A stretch of 50,703 bases of DNA, from NCBI GenBank assembly GCA_009777815.1, contig WRLB01000002.1, positions 1-50,703 on the forward strand. The letters are read 5' to 3'. This DNA is from Bacteroidota bacterium (lineage in GTDB: Bacteria > Bacteroidota > Ignavibacteria > Kapaibacteriales > UBA2268). A program made the position numbers and the translations under genes. Within the stretch, counting starts at the first letter, position 1, and each line of letters begins with the position of its first letter. The notes beneath the pieces are model-generated. The model did no database searches and was not told where the DNA came from. It was given only the letters and a program-made list of their open reading frames with translations. Shown here piece after piece: positions 122 to 29,138 of the stretch.

Positions 122-736
122 TTAATATATTCTTATTCCTTCTGTAAAATATTCAACATTTTCGGTGGTAACTTTGATTACAGCGATGCCCTTCTCTTTT
201 GCTTCTTTCTCTGCATCGGCATCAAAAAAAATGCCACCGACTCCCAAAATTATATTATAATTCTCATATTCTTTGAAAAGTTTTCTAAAGTTTTCTAATT
301 GTGTTGTTATAAGTTTTAATATATCTTTTTTCCGAACTTGGTATTTTGTTTCTATTATTCCAATGGTATCGCCATTCGTTAGAACTATATCATATTCGCC
401 TTCTAAATTAAGTAATTTTATTTTTCTTTTTTTATTCCTCTCTATATAGTAAAAATCTATTCCTGCGAATTTCATATCTCTTTCTAATGAGTTATATATC
501 ATTTGCTCTGCCATTTTGCCATTACCTTCGGCTATTCCACCGATATTGCGAGTAAGTTCTTTTATTTTTTTATTAGTTTCTGCAGAATTTTCTTTTATCA
601 TTCTGTCGGTTTCGGCGGATCTTTTATCTGCTGCTGCAGACATCTCTTTAATTTGCTCGCGAAGTTCATTTGCTTCTTTTTTTGATTCTGCGAACATTTG
701 CAATATGATTTCAGGTGTGTATTTTTCTTCTGCCAT
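122..736 (-). CDS. Coiled-coil plus PD-(D/E)xK nuclease-fold protein of unknown function (DUF3782-like)
   Basis: 204 aa ORF. The charged N-terminal helix carries 11-residue repeats (SAETDRMIKEN/SAETNKKIKEL). The C-terminal core has a D...ExK signature (EGEYDIVL...IGIIETK). A paralog lies at 27474-28169. Confidence 0.7.
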   Translation of the reverse strand: MAEEKYTPEIILQMFAESKKEANELREQIKEMSAAADKRSAETDRMIKENSAETNKKIKELTRNIGGIAEGNGKMAEQMIYNSLERDMKFAGIDFYYIERNKKRKIKLLNLEGEYDIVLTNGDTIGIIETKYQVRKKDILKLITTQLENFRKLFKEYENYNIILGVGGIFFDADAEKEAKEKGIAVIKVTTENVEYFTEGIRIY

Positions 737-5903: not shown

Positions 5904-8780
5904 TTAACCGAACATTTCGCGGAGTTGCTGGCGGATGTCCATTGGGAGAATGACCTTAAATGTGGTTCCTACATTTACTACGCTATCTACATAGATTTTG
6001 CCGAGTAGGTTGTCTACACTTTGCTTTACTATGTGCAAGCCGAGACCTGTCCCCGATATTTTTCCTACATTGCTTGCCCTAAAGAAATTAGAAAATAGTA
6101 GTTTTAAATCCTGTTCAGGGATACCAATACCTTGATCGGCAACGGTAAATATTAGTTCGTTGTCGTTGTTTTTTTCTATAGTAATGGTTACATCTTTGCC
6201 GTTAGTGGTGTATTTGAGTGCGTTTGTGATGAGGTTATGGACAATGTGTTTTATAGTTGGTTCATCTGAATAAAATGGTTTGCATTCGTCTTTAATATTC
6301 ATAACTACGCCGCTTTCATAATGGTATGCTTCACGTATATCTTTTATTGAATTTTCAACAAATAGCACAAAATCCATATCGTTTACAATTTTAACTTTAT
6401 GAGTTTGTCCTTTACCGATTAAAAGCACATCTTCCATCAGTTGATTCATTGTCAGAACGCTCTTATTAATTTTATCTAAATACTGCATTCCGATATCTGC
6501 TCTGTTGCTTTCGAATGCTTGTTCAATTACTCCTGCGGAGTTTAGGATAACTGTTAGTGGCGTTCTAAATTCGTGGCTGACCATAGAAATAAATCTTGTT
6601 TTTAGTTCGTTTAATTCTTTTTCATTTTCTAATGTTTTTTCTAATTTTTCGCCCATTTCTACGAGTGTTTTTTGTGTTTTCATTTGTTCGGTTATTTCGG
6701 CACCTGCCACGATTAAAGTATTTAATTGCCCTAAACTGTTGCTTAATCGGAAGTATTTAGTGAACTCGTTCTTATAATCAATTTCTAATATATAACTTAC
6801 TCCCAATGTATTAGTATCACTGAACCAGTTTTCTATTGTTTGGATGTTTAATTCTTCGCTTCCGTTAATCTTTCCTTTAAGTTTTTCCCAGTGTTTGTCG
6901 CCGATTAACTCGTCTTTTGCAAAACCGACAAGATTTTCTGTATATGGGGTAAGATAGTCAATTCCTCCTTTTTTATTAAATACGACACAAAAACTTGTAG
7001 TTCTTTCTAATATCTCGCTTTTTACTTGTAATTCTTTGGTTAATCTTGCTCTTTGTGCCATTTCGTTTCTTAGGTCTACTAATGTTTTGTTAAGTTTAGA
7101 TGTCCTATCAATTACTCTTTCTTCGAGTTCTTCGTTTAGTCGGACCATTTCGTTTTCAGCAATTTTTCTATCGGTGACATCAACGAAAGTAATTTGTATC
7201 ATTACATCAGTATCAAGGTATAAAACGTTAGAAGCCATATGGACATATTTTTCGGTCCCGTCGAAGCACATAATTTTAATTTCTTGCTCGTTACTATCTT
7301 TGTTATTTTGCTTATTTTGGTCATCTGTTTGGAAGTTTTGTATTTCAAGAACATAATTCCTAAAACTACTTTCTACGAGTTCCGTAAATGGAACAGTTAT
7401 GAACTCTCCTAATGTTTTGCATTTCCATATTTCAAGTAGTGCAGTGTTAGCAAACACGAAAAAATTATCTTTAATCAATCCAATACCTACTATGGAATCC
7501 TCAATCAAAGAACGGTATTTCGTTTCACTTTCTTTGAGTGCCTTTTCGGCAAGCAATGTTTCTGTAATATCATCAATAATAGCAATATAGCCGAACTTTT
7601 TATTATTGTCGTCAAATTCGGCTACAGCAGTTATATTTAAATCTATAGGAATACCATCTTTTCTTCTTCCCATTGCAATAATACGTTCTACTTTATTTGG
7701 TGCATTTAGCGAGATAAATGACTCTTTTACAATGTCTAAATCGGACTTAACAACAAAAGGTAAAACTCGGTCAATAACTTCATATTCTTCATATTTAAAT
7801 ATTTTAGTAAACGAAGGTGATGCTGTTTTTAGTTTAAATTCAGTAGAAAGAGTTAATATAGGTAGCGGTGAAGCATTGATTATGTAGTTAATCATTTTGT
7901 TCGTTGTTTTAAGTTTTTCTTCTGCCATAGTTCTAACTTCAATTTGGTTCCTTAATTGCTGTGTTCTTTGCTCAACTTTTAACTCCATATTTCTATTAGT
8001 ATCCGAAAGTTCAAAATACGAATCCTCCAAATTATTAACCATTTTGTTAAATGTTCTTGCTAATTGCCCGAACTCTTCATTAGTATTAATGGTTGCTCTA
8101 ATAGACAGGTCACCACCTGCAATTCTCCTAAAGGTAGCAAGCAGAACGTTTAACGGTTTAGAGATTAAATTGGAGATAAAAACAGTAGTAAGAATTCCAA
8201 ATAGCAGTATTAACATACATATCATCACTACCCAATATTGCGTATTAGTTATTGTTTTATCCAACTCTTCCATACTAAATACACAACTAATATAGCCACA
8301 TACAACATCTTTATAAACTACTTCAGTATTCACTATATACAATCTTAACGTAGAATCTATTTCATTATCGGTACTATATCCTGGTCTATATAATTGTATA
8401 TGGGGGGGGAAATCATATTTTACTTTTTTAAAGATACTATTTTTCTTATTATTATAGATGAATATATGCGTAGTTATAGGTATCTCCATAACATACTTAG
8501 TTGCAGATTCAAAAATTGTTTTATCTTCTACTAAATCGCTTTCCGATAAATGGAATGCAATTTTATCTGCTGTCATATTTACTATTTTATTATGTATATC
8601 TTTGAAGTCACCTATTAAAACATCTTCCACGACTTTCGGTATCCAGATAGATAGCGATATTGCTACCACTAATATCAGTGTGCTTGTTAAAAGTATTAGT
8701 TGATATTTTTTGCTAATATCGGCAAATTTGATATTTAGTCCAATAACATTAAATACATTTGATTTTTTGATTTTAAACAT
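5904..8780 (-). CDS. Membrane sensor histidine kinase (HAMP, PAS repeats, HisKA, HATPase)
   Basis: Two TM segments flank a periplasmic domain. The H-box is SHEFRTPL, and N, G1 and G2 boxes are present (HNLITNALKYT, DQGIGI, GTGLGL). Confidence 0.9.
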   Translation of the reverse strand: MFKIKKSNVFNVIGLNIKFADISKKYQLILLTSTLILVVAISLSIWIPKVVEDVLIGDFKDIHNKIVNMTADKIAFHLSESDLVEDKTIFESATKYVMEIPITTHIFIYNNKKNSIFKKVKYDFPPHIQLYRPGYSTDNEIDSTLRLYIVNTEVVYKDVVCGYISCVFSMEELDKTITNTQYWVVMICMLILLFGILTTVFISNLISKPLNVLLATFRRIAGGDLSIRATINTNEEFGQLARTFNKMVNNLEDSYFELSDTNRNMELKVEQRTQQLRNQIEVRTMAEEKLKTTNKMINYIINASPLPILTLSTEFKLKTASPSFTKIFKYEEYEVIDRVLPFVVKSDLDIVKESFISLNAPNKVERIIAMGRRKDGIPIDLNITAVAEFDDNNKKFGYIAIIDDITETLLAEKALKESETKYRSLIEDSIVGIGLIKDNFFVFANTALLEIWKCKTLGEFITVPFTELVESSFRNYVLEIQNFQTDDQNKQNNKDSNEQEIKIMCFDGTEKYVHMASNVLYLDTDVMIQITFVDVTDRKIAENEMVRLNEELEERVIDRTSKLNKTLVDLRNEMAQRARLTKELQVKSEILERTTSFCVVFNKKGGIDYLTPYTENLVGFAKDELIGDKHWEKLKGKINGSEELNIQTIENWFSDTNTLGVSYILEIDYKNEFTKYFRLSNSLGQLNTLIVAGAEITEQMKTQKTLVEMGEKLEKTLENEKELNELKTRFISMVSHEFRTPLTVILNSAGVIEQAFESNRADIGMQYLDKINKSVLTMNQLMEDVLLIGKGQTHKVKIVNDMDFVLFVENSIKDIREAYHYESGVVMNIKDECKPFYSDEPTIKHIVHNLITNALKYTTNGKDVTITIEKNNDNELIFTVADQGIGIPEQDLKLLFSNFFRASNVGKISGTGLGLHIVKQSVDNLLGKIYVDSVVNVGTTFKVILPMDIRQQLREMFG

Positions 8781-8809
8781 TATATAAGCAAATATTTTTA
8801 TTTAAAATT

Positions 8810-8817
8810 CAAAAATA
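8810..8817 (-). promoter_or_regulatory. -7 box for the histidine kinase gene
   Basis: The minus strand reads AAAAAAAACGTTATTTTTGAAT, 30 nt upstream of the start at 8780. Confidence 0.5.
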
Positions 8818-8946
8818 ACGTTTTTTTTGAAAATATGTATAACCATTTAGTGTATTTTATATATAGATTTCCGAGAATGTTAAATAATAGGTTGATATTT
8901 TGATGTTTTTTTAAAATCAATAAGCCGATAAATAAAAAAAAAAACG

Positions 8947-8954
8947 TATATTTG
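8947..8954 (+). promoter_or_regulatory. -7 box TATATTTG upstream of ilvE
   Basis: A long A-tract followed by CGTATATTTG, 33 nt before the ATG. Confidence 0.5.
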
Positions 8955-8986
8955 TTTTTATTTAAATAAAAAGATGAGTATTAAAG

Positions 8987-10075
8987 ATGCAATTTAATAT
9001 CACAAAAAATACTGATACACGATATAACGCAATAGATTGGAATAATTTGCGTTTCGGTGTATATTTTTCGGACCATTTTTTTATAGCAAAATATAAAGAT
9101 GGTAGATGGAATAATGGTGAAATTGTTCCTTATGGTCCGCTTTCATTTGAGCCGGCGCTTTGCACGTTTCATTATGCTCAATCTTGTTTTGAAGGATTAA
9201 AAGCATTTAATTGTATGGACGCAAGCGGCAATATAACTGGCAATGCAAATATATTTAGACCGAGAAAAAATGCAGAACGGTTAAATATGTCAGGCGAAAG
9301 ATTATGTATGCCTTCTATTGATGTGGATTTTCAGATAGAGGCGATGAAAGAATTGGTTAGGACAGACCAAAAATTCATTCCTAAACAAAGGGGACAATCT
9401 CTTTATTTACGTCCTTTTATAATCGGTTCGGGCAATTTTTTAGGAGTCCAAGCATCGTCTGAATACTTGTATATGATAATCACTTCGCCTGTTGCATCGT
9501 ATTATGCTAACGGCTTGGAGCCGATAAAAATACTGGTAGAAGATAAATATGTTCGTGCAGTTCGTGGCGGATTAGGATTTACCAAAGCGGCGGCAAATTA
9601 TGCAGCATCGTTATATGGCGGCACAAAAGCACGCGAACGAGGTTTTTCGCAAGTGTTATGGCTCGACGGCGTAGAGTTCAAATATGTAGACGAAGTTGGA
9701 GCAATGAATATAATGTTTTTGATTGATGGCGAATTGATAACTCCAACATTGGAACAAGGTTCAATTTTGCCTGGAATTACGCGGATGAGCATATTAGAAA
9801 TAGCAAAAGATATGGGCATAAAAGTAAGTGAAAGACGCATCGAAATACAAGAAATAATAGATGCACATAAAACAGGAAAACTGCAAGAATGCTTTGGCAC
9901 AGGCACAGCAGCAATAATATCGCCTGTCGGTCAATTAACTTACAAAACCGAAAATATGGTTATCAACGACAACAAAATTGGTCAACTTTCACAGAAATTA
10001 TACGATACAATTTTAGATATACAATACAGCGATACCGCCGATAAAAAGGGCTGGAATGAGCATTTTAAATTATAA
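8987..10075 (+). CDS. ilvE: Branched-chain amino acid aminotransferase (class IV)
   Basis: FSDHFF...GPLSFEPALCTFHYAQSCFEGLKAF...IFRPRKNAERL...YLRPF...AAANYAASL...GITR are typical of the long-form IlvE. Confidence 0.93.
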   Translation: MQFNITKNTDTRYNAIDWNNLRFGVYFSDHFFIAKYKDGRWNNGEIVPYGPLSFEPALCTFHYAQSCFEGLKAFNCMDASGNITGNANIFRPRKNAERLNMSGERLCMPSIDVDFQIEAMKELVRTDQKFIPKQRGQSLYLRPFIIGSGNFLGVQASSEYLYMIITSPVASYYANGLEPIKILVEDKYVRAVRGGLGFTKAAANYAASLYGGTKARERGFSQVLWLDGVEFKYVDEVGAMNIMFLIDGELITPTLEQGSILPGITRMSILEIAKDMGIKVSERRIEIQEIIDAHKTGKLQECFGTGTAAIISPVGQLTYKTENMVINDNKIGQLSQKLYDTILDIQYSDTADKKGWNEHFKL

Positions 10076-24869: not shown

Positions 24870-26711
24870 TTATTTCCACCAATCTAACTCTAATTCTTCG
24901 AATACGCTGTTTCTTTGCTCGGTTGCGGAGATATAATTTGCATCATTTGGCGATAAATTGCTCTTTCCTTTATATTTTTCGAACAAGTCACATAATTTAT
25001 TAAAATCGGCGTGATGATAAGAAAAACGCTGTTCTGCATAGTCTTTCGCGGAATTAGTGTAAATTAAAAACTGCCAATCAGAAGATTGTAGAAGCAACAA
25101 TTCTTTTAATGCTTGTTTTAGAATTCGCTGTTCGAGTGGATTTAATTTTGCAATTATTTTGTTATGACAATCTTTTATTTTGTCATTCTGAACTTGTTTC
25201 AGAATCCCCTCGTTAGAATTAGGGGATGCCGAAATAAATTCGGCATGACAAGTGTTTTCTTTATCATTTTGCTCTTGATTTAATATCCCTTCAAAAATAT
25301 TATTTAGTCGCAATTCATCGTCATAAATATACTGCCAAGTCCAATTATTACCCGCATTAGACCAAACATCATGATTATTGTTTTCGCCCCAAGAACCCTC
25401 AGGCAAACTTATAACTTGTCGCGGCTTTTGCAAAAATATTTCTTCTGATGCTGTCATCATATTTATATAAGGCGAATTATGCAAGCCCTGACAAACTTTT
25501 CTAATAAATTCCGGACCTTCAAACCACCAATGCCCAAATAATTCCGTATCAAAAGGCAAACAAATAGTTGCTTCTTTGCCCGTTAAGTTCTTATAATAAT
25601 TTGCGGTATTTTCAATGTGATGAATAAAATGATTTGCCTGCTTATCCAATTTATCCCAAATCCAATCAGGATGATATAGCGTTTTATACATCATATCTGC
25701 CTTCGCATCGGTAACACGCCAATAGCGAATGCGAGACGGATAATGCGTTTTATGAAAGTCCAAATAATCAGGTTCAGCAGGATAGCCGATGCTTCCACTC
25801 CACACCTGCATTGATAATTTATGATGGCGAGTAAAACATATAGCCGTTCCATATTCAACCTTTTCGCTCGAACTAACTTCATAAATATTCAATGGCGATT
25901 TATCAAAATTCCAAGGTTCAGGTTTAAATTGCGGCGAATTAATATGAACAAACTTTTCTCTATTATTATCTAAAAACTTTCCAATCGGTTGGCTTCTTTT
26001 TAGCAAATCCTCATCAGTTACAAAATAAAATATCTCATTATCGGCTAATATTTGCTCAACACCTCTCCTTAAATGCTTATGATTAAAGGGATGCACAGGT
26101 ATCAAAGATTTCCACTCGTAAGAAGGACGATAAGCACATTCAGGCAACCAAGTTCCACGTGGATTTCTACCGAAGTGTTTTTTATAATTATTTACTGCTA
26201 ATTTCATTTGCAGATTAACGCTTTTATCGTATCCGAGCAAAGGGAAATATCCATGAGTCGCACCGCAAGTCATTATTTCTATTGCCCCTTTATTTTGTAG
26301 TTCGCGGAGTCCTTTTATTATTGATTTATCATATTTATATATGAAATCATTTTTTCTATTTTGATACCACTCCGCCCACCATTTAGCAAGATAAATGTGA
26401 TGAGCATCATAATTCCAATTCATAAAATTATGATGGTCTTCGAGTGCTGCTGCTGCTTTCTTTTCGCAATACGCAATGAAGATATTTTTAGTATCGGGAT
26501 GTTCCAACTGCTCACATAAAACAGGCGATATATCAAGCGTAATCTTTGGAATTATGCCATCGCCAATAAGTTCATTACACATATTAAGCAGCGGAATATA
26601 ACATTCGGCTATTGCTTCGGTCAGCCAATCTTCTCCGTGAGGCCAAGTTCCATGATGCAGAACAAATGGTAGATGAGTATGAAGTATAAGTATTAGATTT
26701 CCTGCGTGCAT
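24870..26711 (-). CDS. Glycoside hydrolase family 57 (alpha-glucan branching enzyme type)
   Basis: LILHTHLPFV..HG.WPHGEDWL, CGATHGYFPLL, WLPECAY, PFDTELFGHWW and C-terminal LLLQSSDWQFLI. Carries an in-frame repeat-element insertion (see 25181-25250). Confidence 0.9.
   Translation of the reverse strand: MHAGNLILILHTHLPFVLHHGTWPHGEDWLTEAIAECYIPLLNMCNELIGDGIIPKITLDISPVLCEQLEHPDTKNIFIAYCEKKAAAALEDHHNFMNWNYDAHHIYLAKWWAEWYQNRKNDFIYKYDKSIIKGLRELQNKGAIEIMTCGATHGYFPLLGYDKSVNLQMKLAVNNYKKHFGRNPRGTWLPECAYRPSYEWKSLIPVHPFNHKHLRRGVEQILADNEIFYFVTDEDLLKRSQPIGKFLDNNREKFVHINSPQFKPEPWNFDKSPLNIYEVSSSEKVEYGTAICFTRHHKLSMQVWSGSIGYPAEPDYLDFHKTHYPSRIRYWRVTDAKADMMYKTLYHPDWIWDKLDKQANHFIHHIENTANYYKNLTGKEATICLPFDTELFGHWWFEGPEFIRKVCQGLHNSPYINMMTASEEIFLQKPRQVISLPEGSWGENNNHDVWSNAGNNWTWQYIYDDELRLNNIFEGILNQEQNDKENTCHAEFISASPNSNEGILKQVQNDKIKDCHNKIIAKLNPLEQRILKQALKELLLLQSSDWQFLIYTNSAKDYAEQRFSYHHADFNKLCDLFEKYKGKSNLSPNDANYISATEQRNSVFEELELDWWK
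25181..25250. repeat. Nested-palindrome element located inside the GH57 reading frame
   Basis: TGTCATTCTGAACTTGTTTCAGAATCCCCTCGTTAGAATTAGGGGATGCCGAAATAAATTCGGCATGACA has the same architecture as the intergenic copies. It is translated as TCHAEFISASPNSNEGILKQVQND (about aa 487-510). Confidence 0.85.
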
Positions 26712-26821: not shown

Positions 26822-27115
26822 ATGAAAAAACTTATTGTAAGTTTAGTTTGCATCTTTGTTATGATGCTTTTAGTAACTTCCTGTTTTACTCACACTTATA
26901 GTGTTGGTAAAGGAGCACAAACAGGTTTAGAAGTTACAAAGAAAAATTATTACTTGATTTATGGACTTGTTCCAGTAACAACATCAGACCCTACGCAAAT
27001 GTCTGGTGGTGCTTCAGATTATACTGTTACTCACGAATGGACATTCGTTGATGGCTTTATATCTGCAATAACATGCGGTATTTTAAATCCAACAACTACA
27101 ACTGTTAAAAAGTAA
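26822..27115 (+). CDS. Bor/Iss-family-like small lipoprotein
   Basis: Lipobox VTSC. The spacing pattern YLIYGLVP...D...GGA...V......F.DGFISAITCGI..P resembles lambda Bor. Confidence 0.7.
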   Translation: MKKLIVSLVCIFVMMLLVTSCFTHTYSVGKGAQTGLEVTKKNYYLIYGLVPVTTSDPTQMSGGASDYTVTHEWTFVDGFISAITCGILNPTTTTVKK

Positions 27116-27387: not shown

Positions 27388-27472
27388 AACACGTGGATTC
27401 GTCCCCGTGCTAATGTGTATCATACGTGTTAAAATAATTGTCATACCGTGTCAAGCACGACATAACAGAATA
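27388..27472. repeat. Intergenic palindromic elements
   Basis: AACACGTGGATTCGTCCCCGTGCT and TGTCATACCGTGTCAAGCACGACATAACAGAATA. The latter is a direct repeat of 28231-28264. Confidence 0.75.
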
Positions 27473-27473
27473 T

Positions 27474-28169
27474 TTAATAAATCATTATTCCGCCCGTCCA
27501 ACATTCTACTTTATCATTGATAATTTGAATGACTCCGATGCCATATTCTTTTGCTTCTTTTATTGCATCTTTATCAAAACTTGCCCCACCAATACCTAAA
27601 ATTATCTTATATTTTGCATATTCGGAAAAAAGTTTTCTAAAATTATTTACTTGTTCTGTTGCAAGTTTAATAACATCTTGTATTCGGACTCTGTGCTTTG
27701 TTTCAATGAGGGAAATAGTATCACAATTAGTTAAAACAATATCAAATTCACCTTCTAAATTAAGTGATTTTATTTTTTTATGTTTATTTGTTTCTATGTA
27801 ATGGAATTCAATTCCTGCGAATTTCATATCTTTTTCTAATGAATTATATATCATTTGCTCTGCTGCAAGTCCATTAGAATCGGATATTCCACCGATATTA
27901 CGAGCAAGTTCTTTAATTTTTTTATCAGTTTCAGCAAACTTTTCTGAAAGAAATCTATCGGTTTCAGCAAACTTTTCTGAAAGAAATCTATCGGTTTCGG
28001 CAAACTTTTCTGAAAGAAATCTATCGGTTTCGGCGGATCTTTTATCAGCCGCAATAGACATTTCTTTTATTTGCTCGCGAAGTTCATTTGCTTCTTTTTT
28101 TGATTCTGCAAACATTTGCCATACTTTTTCAAAAGTATAAGTTATAATTTTATTTTCTTCTGACAGCAT
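27474..28169 (-). CDS. Coiled-coil plus PD-(D/E)xK nuclease-fold protein, paralog of 122-736, with an expanded 11-residue repeat
   Basis: 231 aa. It has the same C-terminal core (EGEFDIVL...ISLIETK). The N-terminal helix contains AETDRFLSEKF three times. Confidence 0.7.
   Translation of the reverse strand: MLSEENKIITYTFEKVWQMFAESKKEANELREQIKEMSIAADKRSAETDRFLSEKFAETDRFLSEKFAETDRFLSEKFAETDKKIKELARNIGGISDSNGLAAEQMIYNSLEKDMKFAGIEFHYIETNKHKKIKSLNLEGEFDIVLTNCDTISLIETKHRVRIQDVIKLATEQVNNFRKLFSEYAKYKIILGIGGASFDKDAIKEAKEYGIGVIQIINDKVECWTGGIMIY
27928..28026. repeat. In-frame 33 bp tandem repeat, 3 copies
   Basis: GTTTCAGCAAACTTTTCTGAAAGAAATCTATCG occurs three times with a single A/G difference in copy 3. 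Confidence 0.95.
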
Positions 28170-28193
28170 AATAGTAATAAGTTTTTATAAATA

Positions 28194-28201
28194 CAAAAAT
28201 A
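28194..28201 (-). promoter_or_regulatory. -7 box for the 27474-28169 gene
   Basis: The minus strand reads AAAAATTATTTTTGTATTTAT, 25 nt upstream of the start. Confidence 0.5.
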
Positions 28202-28230
28202 ATTTTTATTTTAAATTTTTACTAATATTC

Positions 28231-28264
28231 TGTCATACCGTGTCAAGCACGGTATAACAGAATA
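28231..28264. repeat. Palindromic element, direct repeat of 27439-27472
   Basis: TGTCATACCGTGTCAAGCACGGTATAACAGAATA is 32/34 identical to the downstream copy. Confidence 0.8.
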
Positions 28265-28305
28265 TAAAGTTTTGTTTTTAGTGATTCCGTGTGCATACTA
28301 TAATC

Positions 28306-29061
28306 TTAATTAGATTCTATTAAATCTTGTTTAAATAACAATATTAAAGTAGAATCCGTTGGCGATAAAGCAAATTGTTGAAAACGAATCAATCCTTTCC
28401 CTTGTTTAAAATAAAATCTGTTAATTCTAATCGGGTCGTCAGGAGTGTTGCGTTTATTCCTACATTCAAATAGTTTGCATTCCGTGTATTTCTTAAAATC
28501 AGGGAATCCTACTTCTACATCAATTGTGTAGTAGCCCTGTTTTTCATGCAAATAATCTTCGTCTATGTTTGGCACAGCAACATTTCTGTTTAATACGAAT
28601 GACCTTGCAGATGATTCCGAAGAATAAATAGGTAATTCATATTCCCACACAACTGATTCGAATCCATTATTATCTGCCTGCAAATATCTGCCGACATATA
28701 TTTTGTCTGCTTCGTTCATATAGAAAAATGCTTTTTGATTAGTGGTAATATAGCAAAGTGCCATATACTCATACCTTCCCCATCCTTCGTTATTATCGTA
28801 TTGTCGGACAGGTAAAATTCGGACATAATCTATAACATCATTATCTAATAAATGACGAATACTACTGTTGGGTTTTTCATCGGTTCCTGTATCTATCCTG
28901 TATGTCCACTTGTAACCACTAATTAATGGTATCAGTGTATTTGCTGCATCATCACGCAAATAAAAATCTTCAGATGGAGTATATACCTTAACTGGATTGG
29001 GGTCAGAACTACAGCCCAACGCTAAATAAAATAAGAAAACTATTGCTAATAACTTTTTCAT
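28306..29061 (-). CDS. Lipoprotein, function unknown
   Basis: The internal Met gives MKKLLAIVFLFYLALGCSS (lipobox). The -7 box at 29081-29088 lies inside the longer listed ORF. Confidence 0.7.
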   Translation of the reverse strand: MKKLLAIVFLFYLALGCSSDPNPVKVYTPSEDFYLRDDAANTLIPLISGYKWTYRIDTGTDEKPNSSIRHLLDNDVIDYVRILPVRQYDNNEGWGRYEYMALCYITTNQKAFFYMNEADKIYVGRYLQADNNGFESVVWEYELPIYSSESSARSFVLNRNVAVPNIDEDYLHEKQGYYTIDVEVGFPDFKKYTECKLFECRNKRNTPDDPIRINRFYFKQGKGLIRFQQFALSPTDSTLILLFKQDLIESN

Positions 29062-29080
29062 AACACAATAATAATTTTTA

Positions 29081-29088
29081 CAAAAATA
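29081..29088 (-). promoter_or_regulatory. -7 box for the lipoprotein gene
   Basis: The minus strand reads TTTTCGTATTTTTGTAAAAATT, 20 nt upstream of the ATG at 29061. Confidence 0.5.
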
Positions 29089-29138
29089 CGAAAATAATAA
29101 CAAATTATAGCAACTTTAAAAACAAGAATATCTGTATT

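Follow-up and report, generated by a model that had tools for sequence, protein, structure and literature searches.

The DNA analyzed here, a stretch of 50,703 nucleotides covering positions 1 to 50,703 of contig WRLB01000002.1 in the Bacteroidota bacterium assembly GCA_009777815.1 and referred to below as the window, carries on its minus strand (27474..28169) a gene, here called C2a, for a 231-amino-acid (aa) protein that combines a coiled-coil stalk with a predicted PD-(D/E)xK nuclease domain. The open reading frame (ORF) is intact and has the sequence quoted in an earlier note on this DNA, and the protein has 518 homologs at E<=1e-3. The stalk, a single continuous predicted helix according to DSSP on the AlphaFold2 (AF2) model (residues 13-114; 27828..28133, minus strand), contains a 33-bp in-frame tandem repeat (27923..28031, minus strand) that was found by Tandem Repeats Finder with 3.3 copies, 97% matches, no indels, and a score of 204. 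Direct reading of the DNA likewise showed three full 33-bp units, each encoding AETDRFLSEKF and differing by a single A/G change, which is the array's one single-nucleotide polymorphism (SNP); the triple repeat of the earlier note is therefore real. The predicted nuclease domain follows at residues 91-231 (27477..27899, minus strand). About 25 nt 5′ of the ATG lies a promoter-like motif, TTATTTTTGTA (28192..28202, minus strand), recognized from the upstream sequences of the paralogs and common to all ten of them and to many neighboring genes, which we take to resemble the Bacteroidota-type −7 element. The window holds one further member of the family, paralog C2b (122..736, minus strand; 204 aa), which is 63% identical to C2a and lacks exactly 22 residues, equal to two units, at the site of the array, in line with the smaller number of units ascribed to it previously.

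The full-length AF2 model, built on a 57-sequence alignment, reached a predicted local distance difference test score (pLDDT) of 89.5 and consisted of one helix (residues 13-114) with an alpha/beta domain behind it, which supports the proposed N-terminal helix. Confidence, read as pLDDT per 10-residue block, dropped at the conserved NIGGISDSNG hinge (residues ~91-100). A separate model of the domain, based on 30 sequences of 19-35% identity (alignment A2), scored a pLDDT of 93.4 and a predicted template modeling score (pTM) of 0.87, with the topology alpha-beta-beta-beta-alpha-beta-alpha-beta (H-E-E-E-H-E-H-E). In the 57-sequence alignment, D143, N148, E156, K158, and G210 were invariant and E104, G94, S98, N99, and G100 were kept in at least 90% of sequences, while E104, D143, E156, and K158 were all invariant in alignment A2. 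These last four are the catalytic candidates (codons on the minus strand at 27858-27860 for E104, 27741-27743 for D143, 27702-27704 for E156, and 27696-27698 for K158), and they fall on elements H3-24, E48-57, and E61-71 of the domain model.

When the domain was compared with the PDB using Foldseek, the leading matches were all PD-(D/E)xK nucleases at a probability of ~1.0, among them NucS (2vld; TMq 0.56), Can2 (8bao; TMq 0.56-0.59), AF1548, EndoMS, Card1, the R2 endonuclease domain, McrC, MGME1, and Cas4. The best structural matches, NucS/EndoMS (2vld, 5gke) and Card1/Can2 (6wxw, 8bao) at TMq 0.50-0.59, have the same E...D...ExK arrangement as the C2a protein, with merely 13-19% sequence identity to it. 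They differ in what accompanies the nuclease: NucS has an N-terminal beta-barrel dimerization and DNA-binding domain and Card1/Can2 have a CARF sensor, whereas the C2a protein has a helical stalk only. Neither a PCNA-binding motif nor a CRISPR context was seen, although no search aimed at them was made. A sequence-level search for PDB relatives returned coiled-coil noise only, and in Pfam and curated libraries the C2a protein gave only weak, sub-threshold matches, to DUF3782, NERD, and PDDEXK_1; its relatives gave weak matches to PDDEXK_10, Card1_endonuc, and Hjc. The PDDEXK_10 model (PF07788, formerly DUF1626; threshold 21.2 bits) did not match C2a itself and matched 8 of the 57 relatives below threshold, at best with 19.5 bits. 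Collectively, the AF2 models, the Foldseek matches, and the residue conservation support a PD-(D/E)xK fold with a complete catalytic signature, and with it the restriction-endonuclease-like core and D...ExK arrangement proposed in the earlier note. From this signature we infer that the C2a protein is an active nuclease.

Against the Pfam model DUF3782 (PF12644), the C2a protein scored 14.3 bits (E = 0.047; residues 65-113), short of the gathering threshold of 24.4. A Sulfuricystis plasmid protein (L106:3968-4567) reaches 28 bits on PF12644, above the threshold, and hhalign aligned our A1 family profile with this protein at 98.1% probability (E = 1.1e-13) over 178 columns. Because the profile aligns with a threshold-passing protein across both stalk and nuclease, the C2a protein is, on profile evidence, a remote member of a catalogued family, that of the DUF3782 type, and not an unheard-of one. 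Coiled-coil PD-(D/E)XK endonucleases of this type, in which PF12644 corresponds to the stalk and junction, were described by Hartmann et al. 2016 (eLife 5:e11861, PMC4786415). The previous statement that no function is established thus holds for the function, while the family itself had already been catalogued. Members of the DUF3782 type share with the C2a protein a short N-terminal head, a coiled-coil stalk of variable length, a C-terminal PD-(D/E)xK domain, and a conserved IGG..(S)NG..AE junction; they differ in that the stalks of the crenarchaeal members contain nonads and beta-layers (PMC4786415), whereas that of C2a is made of 7- and 11-residue units. A HMMER scan with the nuclease domain gathered 777 clusters at 50% identity, 345 of them at E <= 1e-10, and in nearly all 777 the domain is C-terminal, behind an N-terminal extension of ~26-132 residues (5th-95th percentile). 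For about one-third of the homologs listed at 38-61% identity, the precomputed annotation is PF26618. One protein, P0124 (487 aa), contains two stalk-plus-nuclease modules within a single polypeptide.

The stalk of another paralog, C21, holds the AETDRFLSEKF unit once, and therefore C2a has gained two units. Paralogs carry independent tandem duplications of 33, 54, 87, 75, 42, and 21 bp, which agrees with the suggestion that such expansion is recurrent. Near-perfect stalk repeats were present in 90 of 250 family proteins, and the periods among these 250 were only 7, 11, 14, 18, 21, 22, 25, 28, and 29 residues, all of which are sums of 7 and 11. Such periods fit preservation of the phase of the coiled coil, as expected if an 11-residue unit keeps helical register, although they also follow partly from unequal recombination between pre-existing 7- and 11-residue units. 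The array in C2a probably arose recently, when a single 11-residue unit already present was duplicated in register through either replication slippage or unequal recombination. It would persist because the helix does not lose the phase of its hydrophobic stripe when it changes by 7 or 11 residues, so that stalk length would be loosely constrained and would drift, in C2a and across the family.

Near-perfect units at the DNA level, together with a unit number that differs among paralogs and relatives, could also point to a contingency locus, a site of phase or length variation at which copy number changes frequently within populations. We regard this as very improbable. Since the unit is in frame, a change in copy number cannot switch expression, and three 33-bp copies are a poor substrate for slippage beside classic contingency tracts. 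Moreover, the array, SNP included, is identical in ENA ERZ27257348 (L104) and JGI 3300002469 (L105), where the surrounding DNA is 99.8% and 99.1% identical to the window, respectively, and the proteins P0002 and P0003 both have 231 aa with the same three units. A search of public runs for reads with which to count repeat alleles found no run containing the stretch. As the array is identical in all three independent assemblies that carry the gene, stalk length varies on an evolutionary scale and not as a rapid switch; a constant number was the very outcome that the earlier note had named as telling against its idea of ongoing variation in C2a.

The genome (1.94 Mb in 121 contigs, 73% complete, 31% G+C) gave 18 matches to the family, representing 10 intact genes and 4 contig-end fragments, or at least 11 copies. 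This is far above the one or two copies per genome in the rest of the phylum, where 8 of 300 sampled genomes have the family; among the nearest relatives it was found in 6 of 40 and was absent from the other 34. C2a, C50, and C16 make up subfamily A, and the seven other paralogs, including C2b, make up subfamily B. Homology between paralogs is confined to the ORF and ~60-80 bp upstream. For the nuclease domain, the ratio of nonsynonymous to synonymous substitution rates (dN/dS) was 0.04-0.13 within subfamilies (dS 0.12-0.39) and 0.25-0.36 between them, with a median of 0.13. The paralogs are under purifying selection, and the low ratios imply that all copies have been maintained. Elsewhere, a single-protein scan of genome contigs found the family in Bacteroidales, Chlorobiota, Spirochaetes, Magnetococcales, Methylococcales, WOR-3, cyanobacteria, and archaea, often in several copies per metagenome-assembled genome (MAG). 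In one Magnetococcales MAG (locus L036, JADFYM010000050.1, ~5986-9671), three to four family genes stand head-to-tail with direct repeats of 93-219 bp between them; this array is a local amplification of the gene cassette.

In a neighborhood clustering of 693 ORFs from 80 loci, no conserved neighbor recurred in the 75 loci from other organisms, and the homologs are therefore not embedded in any pathway. The gene could encode an anti-phage or anti-plasmid defense nuclease, for example, a modification-dependent (type IV-like) or abortive-infection enzyme, in which case an arms race would have produced the many paralogs and the variable stalks, and changes in stalk length would adjust the reach to the target or help to evade inhibitors. 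The solitary nuclease, its patchy spread across phyla resembling horizontal gene transfer, and nearest folds that include McrC and the CRISPR-ancillary Can2/Card1 are all in keeping with this, as are weak PADLOC matches of family members to the nuclease parts of CARF-PD-(D/E)xK and Csx1 proteins. These matches of relatives, however, extended to just the nuclease part of the Csx1/CARF-PDDEXK models (E from 1.6e-5 upwards), and no family match in PADLOC-DB 2.0 was significant, the best for C2a being Cas4_II at E = 0.008. The family also had no significant match in PHROGs, one weak match among plasmids, and none among phages, and no defense genes recurred beside it in the 75 loci. The link to defense islands that the earlier note proposed to look for thus found no backing. 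In addition, the protein lacks any sensor or regulatory domain, a defense gene would not usually be present in more than 10 copies per genome, and the stalks look like neutral repeat drift, while the nuclease domain is under purifying and not diversifying selection. A defense role therefore seems rather unlikely to us.

Several features of the paralogs bear on a different possibility, that of a host recombination or repair nuclease, Rpn-like in behavior or Hjc/NucS-like in chemistry, which would promote rearrangement among dispersed repeats such as the variable surface-protein loci near several copies. Paralog C21 (C21:4690-5373) is a mosaic whose 5′ untranslated region and first ~12 codons are of subfamily A (MLSEENK.ITYT) and whose nuclease domain is of subfamily B, a combination that points to recombination among the paralogs of this genome. 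A second multicopy family (130-148 aa) has an N-terminal transmembrane helix, a variable coiled coil built of repeats, and the conserved tail ENKTELKEQQNTFKEI.NKITDVFKSKDVLTEEPQVAL, with copies at C21:4210-4578, C25:18544-18987, C16:31654-31992, C117:547-936, C8:28345-28728, and C4:43332-43697. Four of its seven genes lie at most 150 bp from nuclease copies of subfamily B, and BspA-type leucine-rich repeat (LRR_5) surface-protein genes then follow. These associations and the C21 mosaic would suit a recombination nuclease, as would the structural neighbor NucS/EndoMS, a mismatch and branched-DNA nuclease, the weak Hjc matches of relatives, and the retention of all copies in intact form. The association with surface proteins is, however, limited to subfamily B in this genome and was not seen elsewhere, and since most relatives lack the family, it does not serve a core function in repair.

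In contigs from further samples, the 3′ ends of different paralogs are joined, which would also fit a recombination nuclease. In L104 and L105, the last ~150 bp of C2a is replaced by a C50-type or C16-type 3′ end, and L104 runs on into the genes downstream of C50. Such joins are either real recombinants or assembly joins through shared 3′ ends. The L104 join, which connects the left flank of the window to the right flank of C50, was rejected as proof of strain rearrangement, because the window's own right junction occurs in the same sample as well (L107) and the 3′ ends of the paralogs share ~97% identity there, making an assembly join equally likely. The Rpn (YhgA-like) proteins of Escherichia coli, reportedly treated by Kingston, Ponkratz, and Raleigh in 2017 as recombination-promoting nucleases, are said to be encoded by multicopy, solitary PD-(D/E)xK genes. 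Like C2a, the Rpn genes are scattered over the genome and their role is unclear; unlike the C2a protein, Rpn proteins reportedly have the nuclease at the N terminus and no coiled-coil stalk, the opposite domain order. No sequence relation was detected either, since the Rpn/YhgA-like models PF04754, PF12784, and TIGR01784 (Pfam, NCBIfam) gave no match at E <= 1. We consider a recombination or repair role improbable.

The C2a gene and its ~60-bp upstream region are bracketed by direct repeats at 27439-27473 and 28231-28265, which are 35 bp long and identical at 33 positions; a 21-mer from them matched the window at these two sites only, with 0 matches expected in 100 shuffles. The bracketing described in the earlier note is thus genuine, although the repeats, given there as 34 bp, are not arbitrary sequence, since each copy is a palindromic hairpin of a class found throughout the genome. 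The 757-bp insert between them contains the nuclease gene and its promoter alone, with no mobility gene and no methyltransferase. The upstream hairpin (28226..28265, minus strand), which contains the repeat copy at 28231-28265, folds with a stem of 18 bp (−25.5 kcal/mol, z = −10.4) and lies 41 nt past the stop codon of a lipoprotein gene (28306-29103); given this placement, it is likely the terminator of that gene. The other copy (27439..27473, minus strand) forms a weaker hairpin adjoining the stop codon of the nuclease gene, with −11.5 kcal/mol on the minus strand versus −6.3 on the plus strand, and its two substitutions retain G-U pairing on the transcribed (minus) strand only. In the ENA sample (L107), the left arm of this downstream copy differs at two positions, and its stem is thereby restored. 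Both hairpins look like terminators.

The hairpin class, TGTCAT...ATGACAG(AAT), has ~30 copies in the genome. It takes the form ...(G)ATGCCGAAAYAARTTCGGTATGACAG(AAT), for example, at C59:1626, C77:5386, C84:2715, and 28226-28265 of the window, with stems that vary and are mutually complementary, mostly just 3′ of genes. The two copies flanking C2a are each other's closest match in the class. Their CCGTG-TCAAG-CACGG core subtype occurs elsewhere only in the flanks of paralog C50 and at one unrelated site on C97, and the idea of a dispersed element specific to the nuclease gene holds only in part. Within this genome, flanking direct repeats surround both C2a and C16, and those of C16 are 35-bp repeats of its own that extend past the hairpin. 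In other phyla, 5 of 60 family loci had flanking direct repeats, 20 bp or longer and no more than 300 bp from either end of the gene, of unrelated sequence, compared with 1 of 243 size-matched control genes (Fisher p = 0.0013).

An alternative to an insertion scar is that the flanks are two ordinary terminator or REP-like (repetitive extragenic palindromic) hairpins, one ending the lipoprotein gene and the other the nuclease gene, that are similar by chance or through gene conversion. Each copy does lie directly 3′ of a minus-strand gene and folds on that strand, the class is common in the genome, and the strand-specific G-U pairing and the stem-restoring change in another strain suggest that the downstream copy is selected as a structure. 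The site is also filled in all three samples that hold it. It is harder to reconcile with this alternative that the copies match each other at 33 of 35 positions, above their identity to any other copy, that the repeat ends exactly at the stop codon, that the flanking repeats of C16 reach beyond the hairpin, and that control genes are almost never so flanked. We judge ordinary terminators to be a serious possibility, if somewhat short of an even one.

Precedent for a scar of this kind comes from insertion with long target duplication, described for restriction-modification (R-M) units (Furuta, Abe & Kobayashi 2010, NAR 38:2428, PMC2853133). There the defining comparison was a single uninterrupted target in a related genome, and flanking repeats were significantly enriched for R-M genes (PMC2853133). 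C2a likewise encodes a nuclease in an insert of less than 20 kb, lacks a recombinase, and has direct repeats longer than 30 bp, which extend over the 3′ part of a neighboring gene, and the flank enrichment of its family is like that of R-M genes. R-M inserts, in contrast, hold R and M homologs, whereas the C2a insert is a single nuclease-fold gene with no methyltransferase, and the duplicated sequence at C2a belongs to a dispersed hairpin class and is not unique sequence. No genome with the target in empty, single-copy form was found. In the same-genus genome G001, the orthologs of the lipoprotein gene and of the GH57 branching-enzyme gene on the other side of C2a (24870-26711) are on separate contigs with other neighbors, so that the region is not syntenic there.

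Another palindromic element of the TGTCAT...ATGACA class lies inside this GH57 gene (25176-25250, minus strand) and comprises three hairpins, TGTCATGCCGAATTTATTTCGGCAT-CCCCT...GAGGGG-ATTCTGAAACAAGTTCAGAATGACA. The GH57 protein has 613 aa, compared with ~572-575 in all homologs, and the element, read in frame, supplies the ~42 additional residues; it is an in-frame insertion of a miniature inverted-repeat transposable element, reminiscent of Rickettsia palindromic elements. The closest named relatives of the GH57 gene are in Ignavibacteria/Kapabacteria MAGs. Between the GH57 and nuclease genes are a small lipoprotein gene of the phage-lambda Bor family (26822-27115, plus strand; PF06291, E = 1.5e-18) and, adjoining it, an ORF for a 63-aa membrane protein.

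Taken together, we favor, with moderate confidence, the reading that C2a encodes a metal-dependent PD-(D/E)xK DNA endonuclease on an oligomerizing stalk and makes up a solitary accessory cassette, one that spreads and undergoes recombination both within a genome and across genomes. The catalytic domain (E104, D143, E156-x-K158) would sit at the end of the N-terminal coiled-coil stalk, which most likely oligomerizes in parallel and would thereby bring two or three nuclease heads together. The cassette, promoter plus ORF (~760 bp), would have reached at least 11 copies in this lineage, recombining with its paralogs and adjoining terminator hairpins. Our best guess for its role is a selfish or defense-like DNA-cutting factor, although defense, recombination, and selfish roles are inseparable on sequence data.

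Several observations weigh against this reading. With dS of 0.1-0.4 between copies, the burst was not recent and every copy has been kept, and the upkeep of all copies would be expected of genes that serve the host no less than of selfish ones. Plasmids contain almost no members of the family, and phages contain none. Given the abundance of the hairpin class, the flanks could be independent terminators, and the enrichment statistic is weakened by two of the five repeat-flanked cases (L051 and L063), which are from a single MAG and have a hairpin in common. Finally, a search of metagenome contigs for an empty site, with the outer flanks joined by a gap of 25-45 nt, gave no match, so insertion is not demonstrated.

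A bolder version, which we put forward only as speculation with little chance of being right, is that these genes are autonomous single-gene nuclease cassettes whose structure-specific enzyme cuts palindromic terminator hairpins, extruded as cruciforms, and so makes its own insertion sites. Self-made sites at hairpins would explain copies between duplicated hairpins in unrelated phyla without a recombinase. Similarly doubtful is the accompanying idea that the stalk is an evolvable spacer, changing in steps of 7 and 11 residues, between an N-terminal docking head (conserved W-x-MFAE) and the cutting heads.

For the family, which is large and spans bacteria and archaea, this analysis adds a well-documented member and family-wide statistics but no new principle; what deserves to be retained from it is the 7/11 rule and the enrichment of flanking repeats. 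The strict 7/11 arithmetic is a clean example of repeat slippage filtered by coiled-coil geometry, and a genome whose more than 10 intact paralogs vary chiefly in the length and composition of the stalk offers a convenient natural experiment. If the flank enrichment reflects the activity of the protein itself, it would provide a mechanism by which insertion with long target duplication, long without an explanation, could occur.

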